Of a stretch of DNA of 64,000 bases, positions 440-7,038 are shown piece by piece. Position 1 is the first letter of the stretch. Every line of letters starts with the position of its first letter. A model generated the notes under the pieces. The model ran no database searches and had not been told where the DNA came from. It saw only the letters and a program-made list of their open reading frames with translations. This DNA comes from Gammaproteobacteria bacterium. GTDB taxonomy: Bacteria; Pseudomonadota; Gammaproteobacteria; Steroidobacterales; Steroidobacteraceae. A program made the translations under genes and the position numbers. Location of the stretch: the NCBI GenBank assembly GCA_031431655.1, contig JANPDV010000311.1:177-64176 (forward strand), given 5' to 3'.

Positions 440-703
440 GCGCCCTCCATCCACGGAATCGGCGGCGAGTATATGCCCGAAGCCAGGACTCTATGAATCG
501 CCACCTCCGGCGCTCCCGATCACCCTGCTGCTGGCAATGGCCCCGGGCGCCGGGCGTCGCGCCCTGCGGCGATTCGACATTTCCCCGGGAGATTTGACGT
601 AGCGGCGACGGCACGGGTGGCTGTGACCCGCGTCACGGTGCACTGCGCCTGCCGGTGGTCTATTGCGGCGGTCTCCATTCAAACAACAACGGGAGTCCCT
701 ATC

Positions 704-871
704 GTGATGAATTCCAAACGAAACGCAAAGCTTCCCTCGCTCGATCCGTCACGCCTGCTGGGCGTGCGCCTCGGCACGACTGCCGCGGGTGCCAAGCTCG
801 GTGGCCAGAAGGGCGCGCCTGTGCGCCTCGATTCGAAGACAGGGCCGAAACTCGGTTTCAGCAAGAGCTGA
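704..871 (+). CDS. Small cationic Gly/Lys-rich peptide, candidate RiPP precursor (start GTG 704 or ATG 707)
   Basis: In-frame part of ORF 617..871: (V)MNSKRNAKLPSLDPSRLLGVRLGTTAAGAKLGGQKGAPVRLDSKTGPKLGFSKS. GGGAG at 691-695 precedes GTG 704 / ATG 707. GC3 about 70 percent by hand count. It sits directly upstream of the HExxH and ATP-grasp-like genes and is followed by a hairpin. Confidence 0.5.
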   Translation: MMNSKRNAKLPSLDPSRLLGVRLGTTAAGAKLGGQKGAPVRLDSKTGPKLGFSKS

Positions 872-880
872 GATTGGCCT

Positions 881-906
881 GGTCGGCTGTCTCGCGACAG
901 CCGACC
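881..906 (+). terminator. Perfect 11-bp stem / 4-nt loop hairpin after the small peptide gene (attenuator-like, no U-tract)
   Basis: ggtcggctgtc-tcgc-gacagccgacc, 10 nt after the TGA at 869-871 and 52 nt before the next ATG (958). Followed by GGGGCCC rather than a T-run. Confidence 0.4.
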
Positions 907-957
907 GGGGCCCGCAGCAGGCCGTACCCCGCAGCGCAACAGGACGGGCCCTCCGCC

Positions 958-1995
958 ATGACGATTCATCTTCGATTCGCACCCGACCCGGTGCGTGCGC
1001 AGTTGCTGGACCGGCGCATGCACGTGGAGCTCGCCTCGAGCGTGCGCTACCTCTCGAGGCAATGCGCCGGGTACGTGCCCCACGACGGCGTGGCGATACG
1101 CAGGTTCGCAGCGCGGATTGCACGCGGTGCACGCTTCGGGCCGCTGACATTCCTGGACTATTACGATGGCGTCACCGCGGCCCAGGGCGACGATCCAGAG
1201 ACCTGTGCGCTGGCTTTCGCGCGGCTCGCGTCCGCCGAGCCCGCGCCGGCAGCGCTGCGCATCGAACCCTTGCTCGACGCGACGACCTGCGAGCGCAGCC
1301 GCCGGTTTGCCGACGCGATGCTCGGTGCCGAGTTCCTCGACGTCGGTCTGCTGCCGCCGCCAGCCTCGATGGAGCGGTCCAACGAGAGCCGGCTGCTGGA
1401 GGCGCTGGCGCTGATGCAGGCCACCAGCCCCGCGCTTTGCGGCGAGTTCCGCGCGCTGGTCCGCGAGCTGGTACCCATGGTCGGCGACCCGTCGCGAGCC
1501 TTCATGATCGACGGCGGTTCCCACTATCAGCTCTGGGGCAGCCTGTTCGTCAACATGGCGAGGCACGCCACCCCGCAGGCAATGCTCGAGGTGCTGACGC
1601 ATGAAGCAGCCCACTCGCTGCTGTTCGGCCTGTGCACGCACGAGGTCCTGACGCTGAACGACGCCGCGGAGCGCTATCCCTCGCCGCTGCGGACCGACGA
1701 ACGTCCGATGGATGGCATCTATCACGCCGCTTTCGTGTCGGCACGCATGCACCTTGCGAGCAGTGATCTGCTGGCCAGCGGTCGGCTCGATGCCGCGGCC
1801 GCCGCCGAGGCGCGCGATGCCCGCGATCGCGATCTCGCCAACTTCGAGGCCGGCTACGCCGTGGTGCGCAGGCACGCGCAACTGACGGGTCTCGGCGCCG
1901 CACTGATGGCCGGGGCGCGCGACTACATCGAGTCGGCTCGCGCGCCGTTGCACGCGGTCGGTGGCATCCGGCCGGCGTTGGCTGCCAGCGCCTGA
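958..1995 (+). CDS. HExxH-motif peptide-modification protein (aKG-HExxH-type peptide beta-hydroxylase-like, TIGR04267-like)
   Basis: Internal ATG of ORF 655..1995 (MTIHLRF...). LTHEAAHSLLFGL has HExxH at nt 1600-1614. The downstream ERYPSPLRTDERPMDGIYHAAF resembles the Y-x-(S/A)-P-W/L-R-x-D-x-R-P-x-x-G pattern I recall for this family. Not checked against an HMM. Confidence 0.7.
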   Translation: MTIHLRFAPDPVRAQLLDRRMHVELASSVRYLSRQCAGYVPHDGVAIRRFAARIARGARFGPLTFLDYYDGVTAAQGDDPETCALAFARLASAEPAPAALRIEPLLDATTCERSRRFADAMLGAEFLDVGLLPPPASMERSNESRLLEALALMQATSPALCGEFRALVRELVPMVGDPSRAFMIDGGSHYQLWGSLFVNMARHATPQAMLEVLTHEAAHSLLFGLCTHEVLTLNDAAERYPSPLRTDERPMDGIYHAAFVSARMHLASSDLLASGRLDAAAAAEARDARDRDLANFEAGYAVVRRHAQLTGLGAALMAGARDYIESARAPLHAVGGIRPALAASA

Positions 1996-2007
1996 AGTCG
2001 GCCGCGC

Positions 2008-2973
2008 GTGATCATCGTCCTGACGACCGCCGCGCACGACTACACGCACAAGGTCTTCGACCGCACCGGCCGATTCGAGCTGCGTCGAATGAGCTATGGC
2101 CGCGCCCTGACCGAGAAGCGCCTGCCGCGCGCAACCTACCTGTTCACGGACCTGGACCGCCTGAACTTCTGGGAACTCGAACTTGCCGCGCGCCTCTACC
2201 GCCAGCTCGCCGACGCGGGGCTGCGGGCGCTCAATGATCCCGCGCGCGTGCGGCTGCGCTACAGCCTGCTGCGCAAACTCAAGGATGAGGGCCGCAACAC
2301 TTTCGATGTCTGGCGCCTGGAGGACACGCGCCGGCCCGCCGCAAGCGACTATCCCGTGTTCCTGCGCACCGAGTCGGCGCACCGCGGCAACCTGACGGAC
2401 CTGATCGACACGCCGGAAGCCCTGGACCAGGCGATCGAGACCGCGCTCGCCAGCGGCATGCCGCGGCGCGAGCTGCTGATCGTGCAGTTCTGCGGCGAGG
2501 CGCTGCGACCCGGCCTGTTCGTCAAGCAGGCAGTGTTCCGGATCGGCGATCGCTTCATCACCGCTCCGCAGGTCATGGAGGGGCACTGGACCGCAAAGTA
2601 CGGCGCCAAGGGGCTTGCGACCCAGGAAGACTTCGAGGATGACCATCGTGCCGTGCTCGGGAATCGGTACGGTGACAGCCTGCGGGGCGCGTTCGACTCC
2701 GGCTGCGTGCAATACGGTCGTGTCGACTTCTCGATCGTCCGTCACCAGCCCCAGGTCTACGAGATCAACACCAATCCGCACTACAGCCCGAATCTCACGG
2801 CGGATAATCCGTTGCGGATGGAAGCGGTGCGGTTCTGCCGTCAGGCGCAGGTCGACGCGCTCGCGGCGCTCGACGGTCCGGCCTCGGGCCGCAGCGTCGC
2901 TATCGGCGGCTGGCAGCTCGAAGCCCAGCGCGGCCATGATCGGTGGCTGCTGCAGACGCGCTGGACGCCTTAG
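2008..2973 (+). CDS. ATP-grasp-like ligase domain protein
   Basis: 321 aa, GTG start 12 nt after the previous stop. The layout resembles the ATP-grasp fold: YPVFLRTESAHRG... (central domain), ELLIVQFCGE..., and a C-terminal YGRVDFSIVRHQPQVYEINTNP matching the (V/I)D(F/Y)...(Y/V)-E-I-N-x-x-P Mg/ATP-site signature. Confidence 0.55.
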   Translation: MIIVLTTAAHDYTHKVFDRTGRFELRRMSYGRALTEKRLPRATYLFTDLDRLNFWELELAARLYRQLADAGLRALNDPARVRLRYSLLRKLKDEGRNTFDVWRLEDTRRPAASDYPVFLRTESAHRGNLTDLIDTPEALDQAIETALASGMPRRELLIVQFCGEALRPGLFVKQAVFRIGDRFITAPQVMEGHWTAKYGAKGLATQEDFEDDHRAVLGNRYGDSLRGAFDSGCVQYGRVDFSIVRHQPQVYEINTNPHYSPNLTADNPLRMEAVRFCRQAQVDALAALDGPASGRSVAIGGWQLEAQRGHDRWLLQTRWTP

Positions 2974-3006: not shown

Positions 3007-3864
3007 TCAGCGCGGCGACGACTGCAGGTACGCCGCACCGGTCTTGTTCTCCGCGATCGTCGCGAGCAGCTTTTCGATCGTGGGTTGCAGGATCGGTCCC
3101 ATGATCGGCGCGGTATGGCCACCGGCGATGATCTCGAGCGGGTACCGGGCCATCAGCGCGCGAAACGCCGCGACGCGCGCAGCCTGGTTTCGCTGCTGCA
3201 TGCCATTGAAAGGCATCGCCGGACGGTCGGTCGCCTGTTTCACCTGCTCAGCGGACATCTCGTGCAGCATCGTGCCGCAGACATTCGCGTCGTGCAGGTG
3301 GATGTAGCCGAAGCCATCGGCCGTGAACAGCAGCCTGCGCTTTGTATCGTAGGCCCACATGGAGCCGCTGAGGTCCTTCCAGATTGCATCTAGGACCACG
3401 AACTCGCGGTCGCCGAGGTCGAGGCGCTCGCCGTGCTTCATGGGAACGAGGCGATCGAGGTCGACCTCGGGATGGAACAGGTGATAGTCGCGCACGTCGC
3501 CGACAGCGATCGCCTTCGGGTACTTCTGCAGCAACCGACCGAGATTGCCGGAATGCGGTATTTCCTGGTGGGTGGGGAAGACGTAGTCGAGCGTGCGACC
3601 CTGCAGCACGGACTCGAGCTGACCCTCGAGCGAATACCAGTGGGCGAAGTGGCCGGTGTCGACCATCAGCGTCCTGGTCGCGCCGAGGATCAGGTAGGCG
3701 AGGCAGGGCTCGTGCGTGACGGGCCTGCGTTTCGCCGCTGGCCCCGGCCAGCCGGCCGAATTGGAGCAGCCGCCGACCCAGGCGAAGTCTGGCAACACCA
3801 TCCTGGGGAGCCCGCCGCGCACGATGTACGCGCGCTGGATGACGTCGTTCAGCAGTTCAGGCAT
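3007..3864 (-). CDS. MBL-fold protein of the flavodiiron/ODP type (variant metal motif), no signal peptide
   Basis: 285 aa. LAYLILGATRTLMVDTG..., THQEIPHSGN (H-x-E-x-P-H versus H-x-E-x-D-H), FTADGFGYIH and IIAGGHTAP align by eye with the flavodiiron-protein MBL domain. Its start overlaps the upstream stop by 8 nt (ATGCCTGA). Confidence 0.6.
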   Translation of the reverse strand: MPELLNDVIQRAYIVRGGLPRMVLPDFAWVGGCSNSAGWPGPAAKRRPVTHEPCLAYLILGATRTLMVDTGHFAHWYSLEGQLESVLQGRTLDYVFPTHQEIPHSGNLGRLLQKYPKAIAVGDVRDYHLFHPEVDLDRLVPMKHGERLDLGDREFVVLDAIWKDLSGSMWAYDTKRRLLFTADGFGYIHLHDANVCGTMLHEMSAEQVKQATDRPAMPFNGMQQRNQAARVAAFRALMARYPLEIIAGGHTAPIMGPILQPTIEKLLATIAENKTGAAYLQSSPR

Positions 3865-4846
3865 AGCGCATCCGCTCCTCGTCCGGGAGCGCGCTCGCTG
3901 CGCGCAGCGCCTTCACGGCCAGCTTCACGTGTGCGGCGACGGCCTCGCGACCGCGGATCACGCAGCCGTGCACCGGCGCGATCATGCGCACGTCGAGCTG
4001 CTGGAAAATCGACTCGAAGCGCTCGATCATCGCGGGGTACTGCGCCTCGCGCATCCAGTTCATGCGCGCGACGATCTCGCGTGCGACCACGTCAACCGAC
4101 GGCAGGTACTTCGCGGAGTCGATGACGGGCGCAGAAGCGTCGTCCCTGGCGTGCCGGAAGCCGAAGAAATCCGACGTGAACAGGCAGCCGGTCGTCTCTT
4201 CGTACACCCATTGCGTGATCAGCATCTGCTTGGCGACGGCCTCGAGCCAGCGCAGGCGCAGGTCGCCGAGACTGCGCGCGGTGTCGTTCCTCGCTTCCTC
4301 GATCGGGATGCGACCGAGGAAATCGCGCACTTCCATGATCGAGACGGCCGGATCGTTGATCCACTCGAGGATGCCGCCCGCGCTGCCGAACAGCAGCGTC
4401 GGGTTGCGGCAGGTGCCGAGCACCAGGCCCAGGTTGCCGATGCAGTCGTACTCGTTGCGCGTGTAGTGCAGCCAGACCTTGCGGCTCCCGACCAGCGTCG
4501 CGAGCGCGGACTCCATGGCCGGTCGGGCGATCGGCATGCCGAGATCCACGAAGACGCAGTGGTCCTGGTCCGTCAGGACGTAGGAGTTCAGCGGTTCCCA
4601 CGCGTCGAGATCGCCCGGCAGCCAGCTGAGGCGCTCGGCGCGGACCATGCAGCCGACGCGGTAGAGCCGGTCGGGAACGAGGGCCGTTATCGTCTGGTTC
4701 GCGGCAAAGGCGCGCCTGCCGCCGGACTCGAGCGCCGACCGCGGTCGGGCCACGGACGCGACGGCAGGGTCACCCCGAAGCAGCGCCATGATCGCCGCGG
4801 CGGACGCGCCGCCCATGATGCGCCTGCGATCAATGCCGCGAGACAT
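3857..4846 (-). CDS. Tat-signal-bearing, degenerate MBL/flavodiiron-type fold protein
   Basis: Preferred start is ATG 4846, with AGGA 7 nt upstream. N-terminus MSRGIDRRRIMGGASAAAIMALL is twin-arginine-like. YTRNEYDCIGNLG occupies the H-x-E-x-D-H position (E and D kept, His replaced). FTSDFFGFRH and APVHGCV are conserved. The ORF could extend to 4930. Confidence 0.55.
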   Translation of the reverse strand: MSRGIDRRRIMGGASAAAIMALLRGDPAVASVARPRSALESGGRRAFAANQTITALVPDRLYRVGCMVRAERLSWLPGDLDAWEPLNSYVLTDQDHCVFVDLGMPIARPAMESALATLVGSRKVWLHYTRNEYDCIGNLGLVLGTCRNPTLLFGSAGGILEWINDPAVSIMEVRDFLGRIPIEEARNDTARSLGDLRLRWLEAVAKQMLITQWVYEETTGCLFTSDFFGFRHARDDASAPVIDSAKYLPSVDVVAREIVARMNWMREAQYPAMIERFESIFQQLDVRMIAPVHGCVIRGREAVAAHVKLAVKALRAASALPDEERMRYA

Positions 4847-4943
4847 AGAGCGATCCTGCGTGAATTCGACCTGCCGGATGGTCGCGCGTCTCGCGCAGAA
4901 AATCCATCGCCGCGGCGAGCGGGCGTGCACGCCCGCATCGTTG

Positions 4944-5694: not shown

Positions 5695-7038
5695 TCAGTT
5701 TCGGGCAAGAGGGAAGATTCCGAACAACAATGCCGCCACCAGCATCATGACGCAGATGAGGATGGCCCACTTCAACGCAAATCGCTGGTGATCGCCAAAC
5801 TCGACACCGGCGAGCGCCACCAGCAGGTAGGTGGACGGCACCAGCGGGCTGAGCAGATGCACCGGCTGGCCGATCAGCGAGGCACGCGCCATCTCGACGG
5901 GTGTGATGCCGTACGCCTGCGCCGCTTCCGCGACGATTGGCAGTACGCCGAAGTAGAAAGCATCGTTGGAAATGAAGAACGTAAACGGCAGGCTGGCGAG
6001 CGCGGTGATCGTCGCCAGGTACGGACCCAGCGACGGCGGCACGATCGCGAGGAAACTCTTCGACATGGCATCGACCATGCCCGTGCCGTTCAGGATGCCG
6101 GTGAAGACCCCGGCGGCGAAGATCACGGCCACCACCGCCAGCACGTTCTTGGAGTGCGCGGCGATGCGCTCGCGCTGCTCGGCAAGGTTCGGATAGTTGA
6201 TGACAAGCGCAAGGCTGAAAGCAATCATGAAAAGTACCGGCAGCGGCAGGGCACCGGCGACCAGGGCGACCATCAGCGCCAAAGTCAGTGCCGCATTGAC
6301 CCACAGCAGCTTCGGGCGGCGCAGTCGGGCCACGTCGTCGTCCGTGGCGGCGTCGGCCGCAGCGACGTCCGCATCGCTGTCGATGCCGCCTGGCGCCCGC
6401 GGTGGACCCTCCCATGACAGCGAGCCGAGTCGCTCGCGCTCACGCCGCCCCAGGATCCAGGCGAACAGCACGACGCCGAGTACGCCCACCGCCATCGCCG
6501 GCAGCATCGGCACGAACACGTCGGCCGGGTCGACATGCAGCGCCGCCGCCGCCCGGGCCAGTGGCCCGCCCCAGGGAGTCAGGTTCATCACGCCGCTGGC
6601 CAGCATCGCGACGCAGGTCAGACTGAGCGGATCGAGCCTGAGGCGGCGGTACAGCGGCAGCATCGAGGCGACGGTGATCATATAGGTCGTCGAGCCGTCG
6701 CCGTCCAGCGAGACGAACAGCGCCAGCAAGGCCGCTCCCATCACCACGCGCAGCGGATCGCCACGCACCGCCGCCAGGATCCGCCGCACCACCGGATCGA
6801 ACAGCCCCGCGTCGATCATCACGCCGAAGTACAGGATCGCGAACATCAGCATGACGGCCGTGGGCGCCAGCGTCCGCAGCCCGTCGAGCATCATCTTGCC
6901 GAGCTCGGGCCCGGCGAAACCGCCCAGCAGCGCGAACAGGATCGGGATCGCGATCAGGGCCACGACCGGCAGCAGCCGCCGGGACATGATCAGGTACATG
7001 AACGTGATGACCATCCCGAAGCCGAGCATGGTCAGCAA
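5695..7038 (-). CDS. CitMHS family citrate(-metal):H+ symporter-like transporter
   Basis: 447 aa polytopic membrane protein. The N-terminus MLTMLGFGMVITFMYLIMSRRL... and overall pattern are typical of CitM/CitH. It carries an acidic Asp/Ala-rich central loop. Confidence 0.75.
   Translation of the reverse strand: MLTMLGFGMVITFMYLIMSRRLLPVVALIAIPILFALLGGFAGPELGKMMLDGLRTLAPTAVMLMFAILYFGVMIDAGLFDPVVRRILAAVRGDPLRVVMGAALLALFVSLDGDGSTTYMITVASMLPLYRRLRLDPLSLTCVAMLASGVMNLTPWGGPLARAAAALHVDPADVFVPMLPAMAVGVLGVVLFAWILGRRERERLGSLSWEGPPRAPGGIDSDADVAAADAATDDDVARLRRPKLLWVNAALTLALMVALVAGALPLPVLFMIAFSLALVINYPNLAEQRERIAAHSKNVLAVVAVIFAAGVFTGILNGTGMVDAMSKSFLAIVPPSLGPYLATITALASLPFTFFISNDAFYFGVLPIVAEAAQAYGITPVEMARASLIGQPVHLLSPLVPSTYLLVALAGVEFGDHQRFALKWAILICVMMLVAALLFGIFPLARN

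Follow-up and report, generated by a model that had tools for sequence, protein, structure and literature searches.

A putative operon for a ribosomally made peptide pairs an aKG-HExxH-type hydroxylase with an ATP-grasp-fold ligase

We analysed a 64,000-nt stretch of contig JANPDV010000311.1 from a gammaproteobacterium of the family Steroidobacteraceae (assembly GCA_031431655.1), which is called the window below. Near its start lies a cassette of about 2.3 kb with three open reading frames (ORFs) on the plus strand. They encode a small Lys/Gly-rich peptide of 54 aa, an alpha-ketoglutarate (aKG)-HExxH-type hydroxylase of 345 aa and an ATP-grasp-fold ligase of 321 aa. On balance, the cassette is probably a compact operon for a peptide of an undescribed family that resembles peptides synthesized by the ribosome and modified after translation (RiPPs). 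Its product is most likely a ribosomal peptide natural product of a new kind, and the peptide is very likely the substrate shared by both enzymes. Judged by sequence, the cassette has the features by which RiPP loci are generally recognized: modifying enzymes are encoded next to a small precursor gene whose product has a conserved leader and a repeated core, and this holds across taxa.

A preliminary description of the cassette, made from the window sequence, had reported three co-directional, tightly spaced ORFs, a Shine-Dalgarno-like GGGAG, a hairpin and the motifs of both enzymes. All of these were found in place (Table 1).

Linkage and distribution of the cassette

The locus sample comprised 80 fetched genomic loci that carry the family of the 321-aa ligase, and the window as the 81st. 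A homologue of the HExxH gene was located at most 1.6 kb from the ATP-grasp gene in 74 of the 81 loci, and six of the seven exceptions had no upstream sequence. The loci belong to Alpha-, Beta- and Gammaproteobacteria, Gemmatimonadota, Cyanobacteria (Synechococcus), Planctomycetota, Verrucomicrobiota and Myxococcota. The cassette recurs in at least six bacterial phyla and is a real, widespread module. The ligase family had 1,080 homologues in a 90%-clustered collection and formed 2,079 clusters at 50% identity (1,230 at E ≤ 1e-30). The co-localisation of the enzyme genes raised in the preliminary description was thus borne out. Its word "orphan", if taken to mean rare, does not suit a family of this size from several phyla.

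Three layouts were observed. The HExxH and ATP-grasp genes diverged around a spacer of 250–780 bp in 44 loci, and they were adjacent and co-directional in 14 loci besides the window. In 14 loci the order was HExxH gene, a gene for a ~490-aa MOP/Wzx-type flippase (Polysacc_synt_3), and ATP-grasp gene. The flippase gene is located at 4499–5989 in L002 and at 4498–5976 in L018, and is found likewise in 12 further loci. Flippases of this type normally move lipid-linked oligosaccharides.

The reciprocal sample comprised 80 metagenome loci found with the HExxH alignment. An LLGF-type peptide was present in 64 of the 80 loci. The 321-aa ATP-grasp was present in 50, and an ATP-grasp protein of ~620 aa was encoded instead in 16; the remaining 14 loci were mostly short contigs. 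The two ATP-grasps never co-occurred, and the ~620-aa ligase adjoined the same HExxH and peptide genes in its 16 loci (L119 5981–7828, minus strand; L130 2702–4579, plus; L127 1014–2954, plus; L139 2379–4241, minus; L145 2629–4734, plus; and 11 more). The ~620-aa protein matched positions ~115–566 of the 871-position cyanophycin synthetase model, which we take to be the N and G (ATP-grasp) domains. The mostly missing C-terminal part is presumably the Mur-ligase-like M domain. The protein also matched N-acetylglutaminylglutamine synthetase, the GshAB ATP-grasp and Pfam RimK/ATP-grasp_5. The comparison of the 321-aa family with the ~620-aa partner by hhalign detected no sequence relationship.

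To judge by these alignments, the two ATP-grasp families are a non-orthologous replacement of one function. One hydroxylase/precursor family pairs with either ATP-grasp, and the ATP-grasp partner therefore looks required. ATP-dependent ligation looks like an integral step of the pathway, and the ligase swap is the strongest evidence for it. The swap in the same gene context amounts to a clean natural experiment on the ligase step. Truncated CphA-like enzymes that act on a ribosomal peptide would, if this is true, be notable in their own right.

In four metagenome loci (L139 6004–6819 and L153 5120–5878, both on the plus strand, L154 and L157), the gene that directly follows the HExxH gene downstream encodes a DUF6065 protein (Pfam E ~1e-90). 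Three of the four also carried the CphA-like ATP-grasp. The DUF6065 protein may be an additional tailoring component.

All-versus-all clustering of the ORFs of the 81 loci showed no conserved fourth gene, whether for a protease, an ABC/PCAT exporter or an RRE protein. Beyond the MOP flippase, only generic ABC ATPases, family 2 glycosyltransferases (GT2) and response regulators recurred, each in at most 10 loci. Radical SAM genes were absent from the recurring gene families of the 81 loci. The wider neighbourhoods of the cassette differed among loci.

Cultured carriers of the cassette are Alkalilimnicola ehrlichii MLHE-1, Thioalkalivibrio paradoxus, Pseudomonas sp. N040 and Hyphomonas spp. An HExxH homologue is also present in Lignipirellula cremea, where the hydroxylase gene alone was looked at. 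A. ehrlichii MLHE-1 (L082, CP000453) and T. paradoxus (L085, CP007029) are haloalkaliphiles, and their cassettes are located among sugar-modifying genes (including those for NeuB, a CMP-sugar transferase, GT1, GT4 and GT61 glycosyltransferases, epimerases and MdoG). The precursor homologue of A. ehrlichii has 53 aa (L082 6794–6955).

The precursor family and the two enzymes

One to five small ORFs (40–120 aa) were found directly upstream of the HExxH gene, and co-directional with it, in about 74 of the 81 loci. The small ORF of the window has the same position and orientation, and the short Lys/Gly-rich ORF that the preliminary description sought before the enzyme pair is thus a regular feature. 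A hidden Markov model (HMM) of the leader, built with the window peptide left out, was run on all 1,131 stop-to-stop frames in the window and matched the small ORF alone (E = 0.002; next 1.3). Two independent SRA assemblies with 99.95% identity to the window also have the 54-aa ORF among their called genes. An alternative start at GTG 704 gives a 55-aa version. The pattern seen in the small ORF exceeds chance, as measured on its sequence.

Pfam and NCBIfam gave no match for any precursor peptide, and the annotation, if any, is "hypothetical protein". The search of the 80 loci with the 54-aa peptide by tblastn gave no matches, the query being too short and of too low complexity, and the leader HMM and a motif search were used instead. 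A homologue search against 5.8 billion sequences returned only the peptide itself, with E-values that are too harsh for 54 aa.

The alignment of 83 precursors gave the leader consensus phi-D-x-(S/T/W)-(K/R)-L-L-G-(F/L/Y)-(R/K/D)-(L/I/Q). The core register is a tetrapeptide, (K-phi-G-x)n, with 1–10 units and with Leu, Ile or Val as phi. The 83 peptides contained 219 phi-G-x-K motifs, compared with 16.6 ± 3.9 in shuffled cores. The core unit is flanked by G/A/K before and P/phi-G-x-K after. The K-phi-G register is held while the lysine spacing varies by 0, 1 or 2 residues. The equivalents of window repeat 2 in the closest relatives are PKLGFK (L001) and AKLGFK (L081).

The precursors often occur in 2–5 copies per locus or as multi-leader/multi-core fusions. 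The Hyphomonas variant reads LLGFSNLRDAKNDTMVGCKGG...RRRGGKRFFKFW. Its copies have a ratio of nonsynonymous to synonymous polymorphism (pN/pS) of 0.1–0.19, showing purifying selection. The Hyphomonas peptide was found on more than 600 contigs, and the cassette is abundant in marine metagenomes. The Mesorhizobium-type precursor has two leader-core modules per ORF (VDLDTLLKV...GVSVGLKP), and a Xanthobacteraceae precursor has four modules. Some precursors carry 2–4 complete leader and core modules in one ORF (L069 5490–5858 on the minus strand, and L055, L059, L060 and L063 with ORFs of 150–180 aa); in one case the module KLDE(S/T)KLLGLRTNGYAVGxK is found four times. Such multi-module precursors suggest that the "leader" motif is recognised internally, and leader cleavage is thereby in question.

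The 345-aa protein matched TIGR04267 ("aKG-HExxH-type peptide beta-hydroxylase") with 110.5 bits against a cutoff of 40, over profile positions 3–176 of 177; Pfam gave no match. Its AlphaFold2 (AF2) model, built with 27 homologues, had a predicted local distance difference test score (pLDDT) of 93.6. The Foldseek search of the whole PDB gave only two significant matches, ChlBHExxH (8s5f, E 7e-11, template modelling score 0.63–0.73, ~350 columns) and SjiH (22ob, E 1e-7), and nothing else below E 0.6. The fold match extends over ~350 columns, and therefore the whole 345-aa protein has the aKG-HExxH fold, without an extra recognition domain. At the sequence level there is weak similarity to ChlH (8s5f) and to a homologue fused to radical SAM (22nu). 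H215, E216, H219, S242-P-L-R245-x-D247-x-R249-P-M-D-G253 and H256 are invariant in the 27 homologues. The stretch ERYPSPLRTDERPMDG corresponds to residues 238–253, and the conserved block aligns with HEHRH...PSPWREDLRP..G..H of ChlH. By its profile match and predicted fold, the 345-aa protein truly belongs to the aKG-HExxH family, with residue roles assigned by alignment. The first assignment of this protein as HExxH-type was therefore correct.

The 321-aa protein had no Pfam match at E ≤ 1, and NCBIfam gave only a 12-bit fragment of D-Ala-D-Ala ligase (Ddl). The PDB sequence search returned nothing, and only the family profile and the fold search linked the protein to known enzymes. Its AF2 model (pLDDT 90) has the ATP-grasp fold. 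Foldseek gave 293 PDB matches at E ≤ 1e-3, the best being RimK, Ddl, LysX/ArgX and PruB (E ~3e-9). ATP-grasp ligases made up nearly all of the best 50 of the 293 matches, with RimK, Ddl and LysX at the head and no graspetide ligase (microviridin, plesiocin) among these 50. G237, R238, D240, F241, Y251, E252, I253, N254, N256 and P257 are invariant in 27 homologues; the motifs YGRVDFSI and VYEINTNP are located at residues 236–243 and 250–257. The family profile G-R238-x-D240-F...E252-x-N254-T-x-P, which contains the predicted Mg/ATP-binding residues R238, D240, E252 and N254, aligned with the catalytic motif WGRADFML...LEVNTAPG of Ddl (E 0.0035). The modelled fold and this alignment place the 321-aa protein as an unnamed family inside the ATP-grasp superfamily. 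The ATP-grasp assignment of the preliminary description was upheld by the fold and the Ddl-motif profile, while the ATP-grasp models of Pfam and NCBIfam remained silent.

Ten long proteins of the ligase family were tested for fusions. C-terminal TPR repeats were found in six (P0324, P0333, P0332, P0331, P0284 and P0281), a fusion with a GT2 glycosyltransferase once (P0309, 683 aa) and a tandem duplication once (P0262, 618 aa). The fused domains suggest peptide binding and, for some lineages, a link with glycosylation.

The sugar-related observations would fit a role in cell-envelope glycans, in which the two enzymes amide-link an amino compound to a uronic or nonulosonic acid and the small ORF is regulatory or structural. 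This reading also covers the case that the peptide is a substrate but not the only one. It is consistent with the Wzx-type MOP flippase between the enzyme genes in 14 of the 81 loci, the in-operon GT2 glycosyltransferases in Verrucomicrobia and Devosia loci, the GT2–ligase fusion, and the sugar genes around the cassette in Alkalilimnicola and Thioalkalivibrio. We give it little credence. All characterised aKG-HExxH enzymes have ribosomal peptides as substrate, and no feature is linked more tightly to the HExxH gene than the peptide gene, which occurs in several copies at many loci and shows a leader/core architecture. Apart from this, the gene content around the cassette is not conserved, and no glycan genes were found near it in the window.

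The features of the window cassette are listed in Table 1. The 345-aa and 321-aa ORFs are separated by 12 nt. The 92-nt region 869–960, which contains the stem-loop, folds at −46.1 kcal/mol (z = −2.2). The spacers between peptide and HExxH genes across loci had a median z of −1.5, and 41% of them were below −2 when compared with shuffles. RiPP genes are commonly arranged so that mRNA for the precursor stays in excess. The stem-loop that follows the small gene probably maintains peptide mRNA above enzyme mRNA, and the folding of the spacers across loci fits both the window hairpin and this arrangement.

Table 1. Features of the three-gene cassette in the window
Feature	Position (nt)	Strand	Details	Basis
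GGGAG, Shine-Dalgarno-like	691–695	+	11 nt before ATG 707, 8 nt before GTG 704	Sequence reading
Putative precursor peptide gene, 54 aa	707–871	+	MNSKRNAKLPSLDPSRLLGVRLGTTAAGAKLGGQKGAPVRLDSKTGPKLGFSKS	Leader HMM, locus position, SRA gene calls
Leader motif	740–772	+	L12-D-P-S-R-L-L-G-V-R-L22	Alignment of 83 precursors, HMM matches
Core repeat 1	791–811	+	A-K-L-G-G-Q-K; K-phi-G-x-x-K variant of family K-phi-G-x-K	Motif statistics
Core repeat 2	845–865	+	P-K-L-G-F-S-K	Motif statistics, equivalents in closest relatives
Stem-loop, precursor–HExxH spacer	881–906	+	Perfect 11-bp stem 881–891/896–906, UCGC loop, without T-run	
aKG-HExxH-type peptide hydroxylase (predicted), 345 aa	958–1995	+		TIGR04267, AF2, Foldseek
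TIGR04267 domain of hydroxylase	1399–1914	+	Residues 148–319	Profile match
HEAAH metal-binding motif (predicted)	1600–1614	+	H215/E216/H219	Invariant in 27 homologues
ATP-grasp-fold ligase (predicted), unnamed family, 321 aa	2008–2973	+	GTG start	Fold, homologues
ATP-grasp signature	2713–2778	+	Y-G-R238-V-D240-F...Y-E252-I-N254-T-N-P	Conservation, Ddl profile alignment

The upstream neighbour of the cassette is a divergent SCO1/SenC gene. Downstream are two genes of the ODP-type metallo-beta-lactamase fold, a gene for a 254-aa unknown protein, a CitMHS transporter gene and a TonB-dependent receptor gene. The two ODP-family genes (3007–3864 and 3857–4930, both on the minus strand) form a tandem with an 8-nt overlap and converge on the end of the ATP-grasp gene. 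They have a flavodiiron-like N-terminal domain, with a weak match in the second gene, and nothing evident ties them to the cassette. The immediate neighbours, to 9.5 kb downstream, include no gene for a radical SAM enzyme, a protease or an exporter. The statement in the preliminary description that no protease or exporter adjoins the cassette is true of the window, whereas about one sixth of the loci (14/81) encode the MOP/Wzx-type flippase, a candidate exporter of the system.

The GC content is uniform (0.64–0.71 across the region), and there was no signal of horizontal transfer. No canonical sigma-70 promoter or intrinsic terminator was found around the cassette on the plus strand, and no Rfam family (gathering threshold) or tRNA gene in the whole 64-kb window. 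A 752-aa ORF antisense to the whole cassette (679–2937, minus strand) was rejected as a shadow frame of DNA with ~68% GC. Other overlapping ORFs of 100–450 aa across the cassette were also rejected as GC-rich shadow frames.

Proposed modification of the peptide

In the pathway that we propose, the substrate would be the 54-aa product of the small gene. The N-terminal LDPSRLLGVRL would serve as the recognition motif, and the C-terminal part would provide the K-phi-G-x-K-type lysine units. The Fe(II)/aKG HExxH enzyme would dock on the leader and oxidise a C–H bond in each unit. By analogy with characterised aKG-HExxH members, this oxidation would be a side-chain beta-hydroxylation, and we think it quite likely that the enzyme hydroxylates inside the repeat unit. 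The first guess for the site is the aliphatic residue (Leu/Ile/Val) before the invariant Gly, since the invariant dipeptide of the unit is aliphatic-Gly; the second guess is the lysine.

Characterised aKG-HExxH enzymes are leader-dependent Fe/aKG oxygenases that act on ribosomal peptides, with His, Asp, Phe, Gln and Pro as targets of beta-hydroxylation (PMC12636437, PMC13060819). Their reactions "at present cannot be predicted" (PMC13060819). PflC and PosC attack Ala in ARMD and cleave the backbone oxidatively or, without the leader, hydrolytically (PMC12636437). The latter reactions lend themselves to a different reading, namely that the HExxH enzyme attacks the Gly C-alpha or hydrolyses the bond at phi-Gly, and the ATP-grasp re-ligates or cyclises the units. 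The motif, by the way it was built, always has Gly behind the aliphatic residue, the K-phi-G register persists despite lysine spacings of 0, 1 and 2, the cassette encodes no protease, and the arrays of 1–10 units resemble multi-core precursors. We regard such backbone processing as highly improbable. It is entirely speculative, single-unit precursors are common, and cleavage is known in one subgroup of the HExxH family only; oxidative cleavage gives a C-terminal amide, which is no ATP-grasp substrate.

ATP-grasp enzymes always couple an acyl-phosphate to a nucleophile. The ligase of the cassette would make an acyl-phosphate with ATP and then an amide, or less likely an ester, on the same units that the HExxH enzyme oxidises. 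The most likely nucleophile would be the lysine epsilon-amine, because the cores have no conserved carboxylate and a number of them have no Asp or Glu. The carboxylate would most likely come from a free amino acid or another small acid. Acylation of the lysine side chain by the ATP-grasp, with a carboxylate supplied from outside the peptide, is a tentative proposal, with rather less than an even chance. The outcome would be a branched, isopeptide-decorated cationic peptide. Leader removal and export would depend on genes outside the cassette, and a MOP-type transporter is encoded in ~1/6 of the loci. We speculate, as a long shot, that the ATP-grasp amide-links the lysines to carboxylate-bearing glycans or lipid-linked sugars, the hydroxyls made by the HExxH enzyme are O-glycosylated and the Wzx-type flippase exports the product, giving a peptide-decorated surface polysaccharide.

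The distribution of carboxylates in the precursors bears on two other roles of the ligase. Asp or Glu was present in 75 of the 83 cores and absent from eight, and no acidic position is conserved. The only carboxylate found in every precursor is the C-terminal one. The ATP-grasp could phosphorylate this alpha-carboxylate and add one or more free amino acids, with the HExxH enzyme independently hydroxylating the repeats. Such C-terminal tailing is in keeping with the closest ligase structures (RimK, Ddl and LysX/ArgX), which are extenders of C-terminal carboxylates, and the enzymes matched by the ~620-aa partner (cyanophycin synthetase N and G, N-acetylglutaminylglutamine synthetase and GshAB) also extend such carboxylates. 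However, RimK/LysX-type enzymes need a defined acidic C-terminus, whereas the C-terminus of the precursors varies in its residue (A, S, T, K, V, G, R and others) and in its distance from the last repeat (1–28 residues). The strict conservation and repetition of the lysines would also be left without explanation. We consider C-terminal tailing unlikely.

In the other role, the ATP-grasp would link Lys to Asp/Glu side chains (omega-amide) in a graspetide-like macrocyclisation, with the HExxH enzyme in secondary tailoring. The ATP-grasp is the class-defining enzyme of graspetides, one graspetide cluster with an added Fe/2-oxoglutarate (2OG) hydroxylase is known (PMC12186529), and most of the cores do contain some Asp or Glu. 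Against this, the acidic residues have no conserved position and are missing from the eight cores, and no Pfam or NCBIfam ATP-grasp model, which are expected to include ATP-grasp peptide-maturase models, matched the ligase. Its best 50 of 293 structural neighbours are RimK, Ddl and LysX rather than microviridin or plesiocin ligases. Moreover, the HExxH gene accompanies the peptide more constantly than the ligase gene does and is not an accessory. The core carboxylate is not conserved, and graspetide side-chain macrocycles are therefore excluded as a general mechanism; for the cassette, this reading is very unlikely. The ester/amide macrocycle of graspetide style that the preliminary description had offered as an option is thereby unlikely as well.

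Several points weigh against the proposed pathway of repeat hydroxylation and lysine acylation. The chemistry of every step is proposed by analogy. The window peptide has no strict phi-G-x-K motif; it has K-L-G-x-x-K twice, a minority spacing seen in 9 of the 170 K-phi-G motifs outside the window peptide. The backbone cleavage by PflC/PosC (PMC12636437) means, by analogy, that hydroxylation by the HExxH enzyme is not guaranteed. The best structural and sequence relatives of both ATP-grasp partners (RimK, Ddl, GshB and the CphA G domain) activate an alpha-carboxylate at the C-terminus and attach a free amino acid to it, which suits C-terminal extension more than acylation of lysine. Neither a protease nor a dedicated exporter is conserved across the loci, and leader removal is thereby in question. 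Some loci with HExxH and peptide genes, such as L153, have no ATP-grasp in the available sequence. In L062 (Myxococcota), a peptide gene (5704–5901, minus strand) and an ATP-grasp gene (6001–6963, plus strand) have no HExxH gene within 6 kb. This locus is the only clear exception to the HExxH/ATP-grasp pairing among the genome loci.

Comparison with known systems

The 345-aa protein shares the HMM, the invariant motifs and the fold with the aKG-HExxH family (TIGR04267/IPR026337), which includes ChlH/ChlBH, SjiH, BpmH, PflC/PosC and PesO. As in those systems, the hydroxylase gene lies beside a small precursor gene with a conserved N-terminal leader. Unlike the other members, the hydroxylase of the cassette is stand-alone, with no radical SAM, MNIO or lanthipeptide enzyme fused or adjacent to it, and its fixed partner is an ATP-grasp ligase. 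The known hydroxylated residues (His, Asp, Phe, Gln, Pro) occupy no conserved position in the (K-phi-G-x)n cores (PMC13060819). The FxSxx-COOH and triceptide rSAM-HExxH systems use the same hydroxylase family. A radical SAM/SPASM-HExxH system was rejected as the identity of the cassette, since radical SAM is absent from the window cassette and from the conserved module, in agreement with the preliminary description. A known anti-phage defence system was also rejected, as no PADLOC model matched any of the three cassette proteins.

The cassette resembles graspetides in its ribosomal precursor, its conserved leader motif, its often repeated core units and the ATP-grasp encoded alongside. It differs from them in that its core has no conserved Asp/Glu or Thr/Ser pairing, and in that its ATP-grasp falls outside the curated models and, by the best 50 of its 293 structural matches, is nearer to RimK, Ddl and LysX. 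Graspetide identity was rejected on the core chemistry, as the conserved carboxylate with Thr/Ser/Lys partners is lacking. The closest case in the searchable literature is a group-18 graspetide cluster with SmaO, a canonical Fe/2OG hydroxylase (PMC12186529). The hydroxylase is an obligatory partner in the cassette but occasional in graspetide clusters (PMC12186529).

Structurally, the 321-aa ligase is matched best by RimK, LysX and the cyanophycin synthetase G domain, which would share with it a polypeptide substrate. The ~620-aa partner shows homology to the CphA1 N and G domains. Unlike the substrates of RimK/LysX/CphA, the cassette peptide has no conserved acidic C-terminus, and those systems offer no parallel to a RimK/CphA-like ligase paired with a hydroxylase and a peptide that bears a leader. 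In PGM1-type ligases (pheganomycin), the ATP-grasp activates a small non-ribosomal carboxylate and the amine of a ribosomal peptide is the nucleophile. PGM1 acylates the N-terminal alpha-amine of leaderless peptides, unlike the lysine acylation proposed for the cassette, and the likeness noted is one of logic.

The preliminary description knew of no characterised RiPP class with an HExxH hydroxylase and an ATP-grasp enzyme but without radical SAM, and we found no description of the HExxH/ATP-grasp pairing in the searchable full-text literature, outside which many subscription papers lie. Compared with the known systems, the new elements are the precursor family with its LLGF leader and (K-phi-G-x)n core, the ATP-grasp family of ~2,000 clusters and its partnership with an aKG-HExxH enzyme. 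If the proposed pathway is true, aliphatic or lysine residues would join the substrates of the HExxH oxygenases, and the cassette would represent a new RiPP class that extends the chemistry of ATP-grasp enzymes in RiPPs beyond Asp/Glu-based macrocycles.

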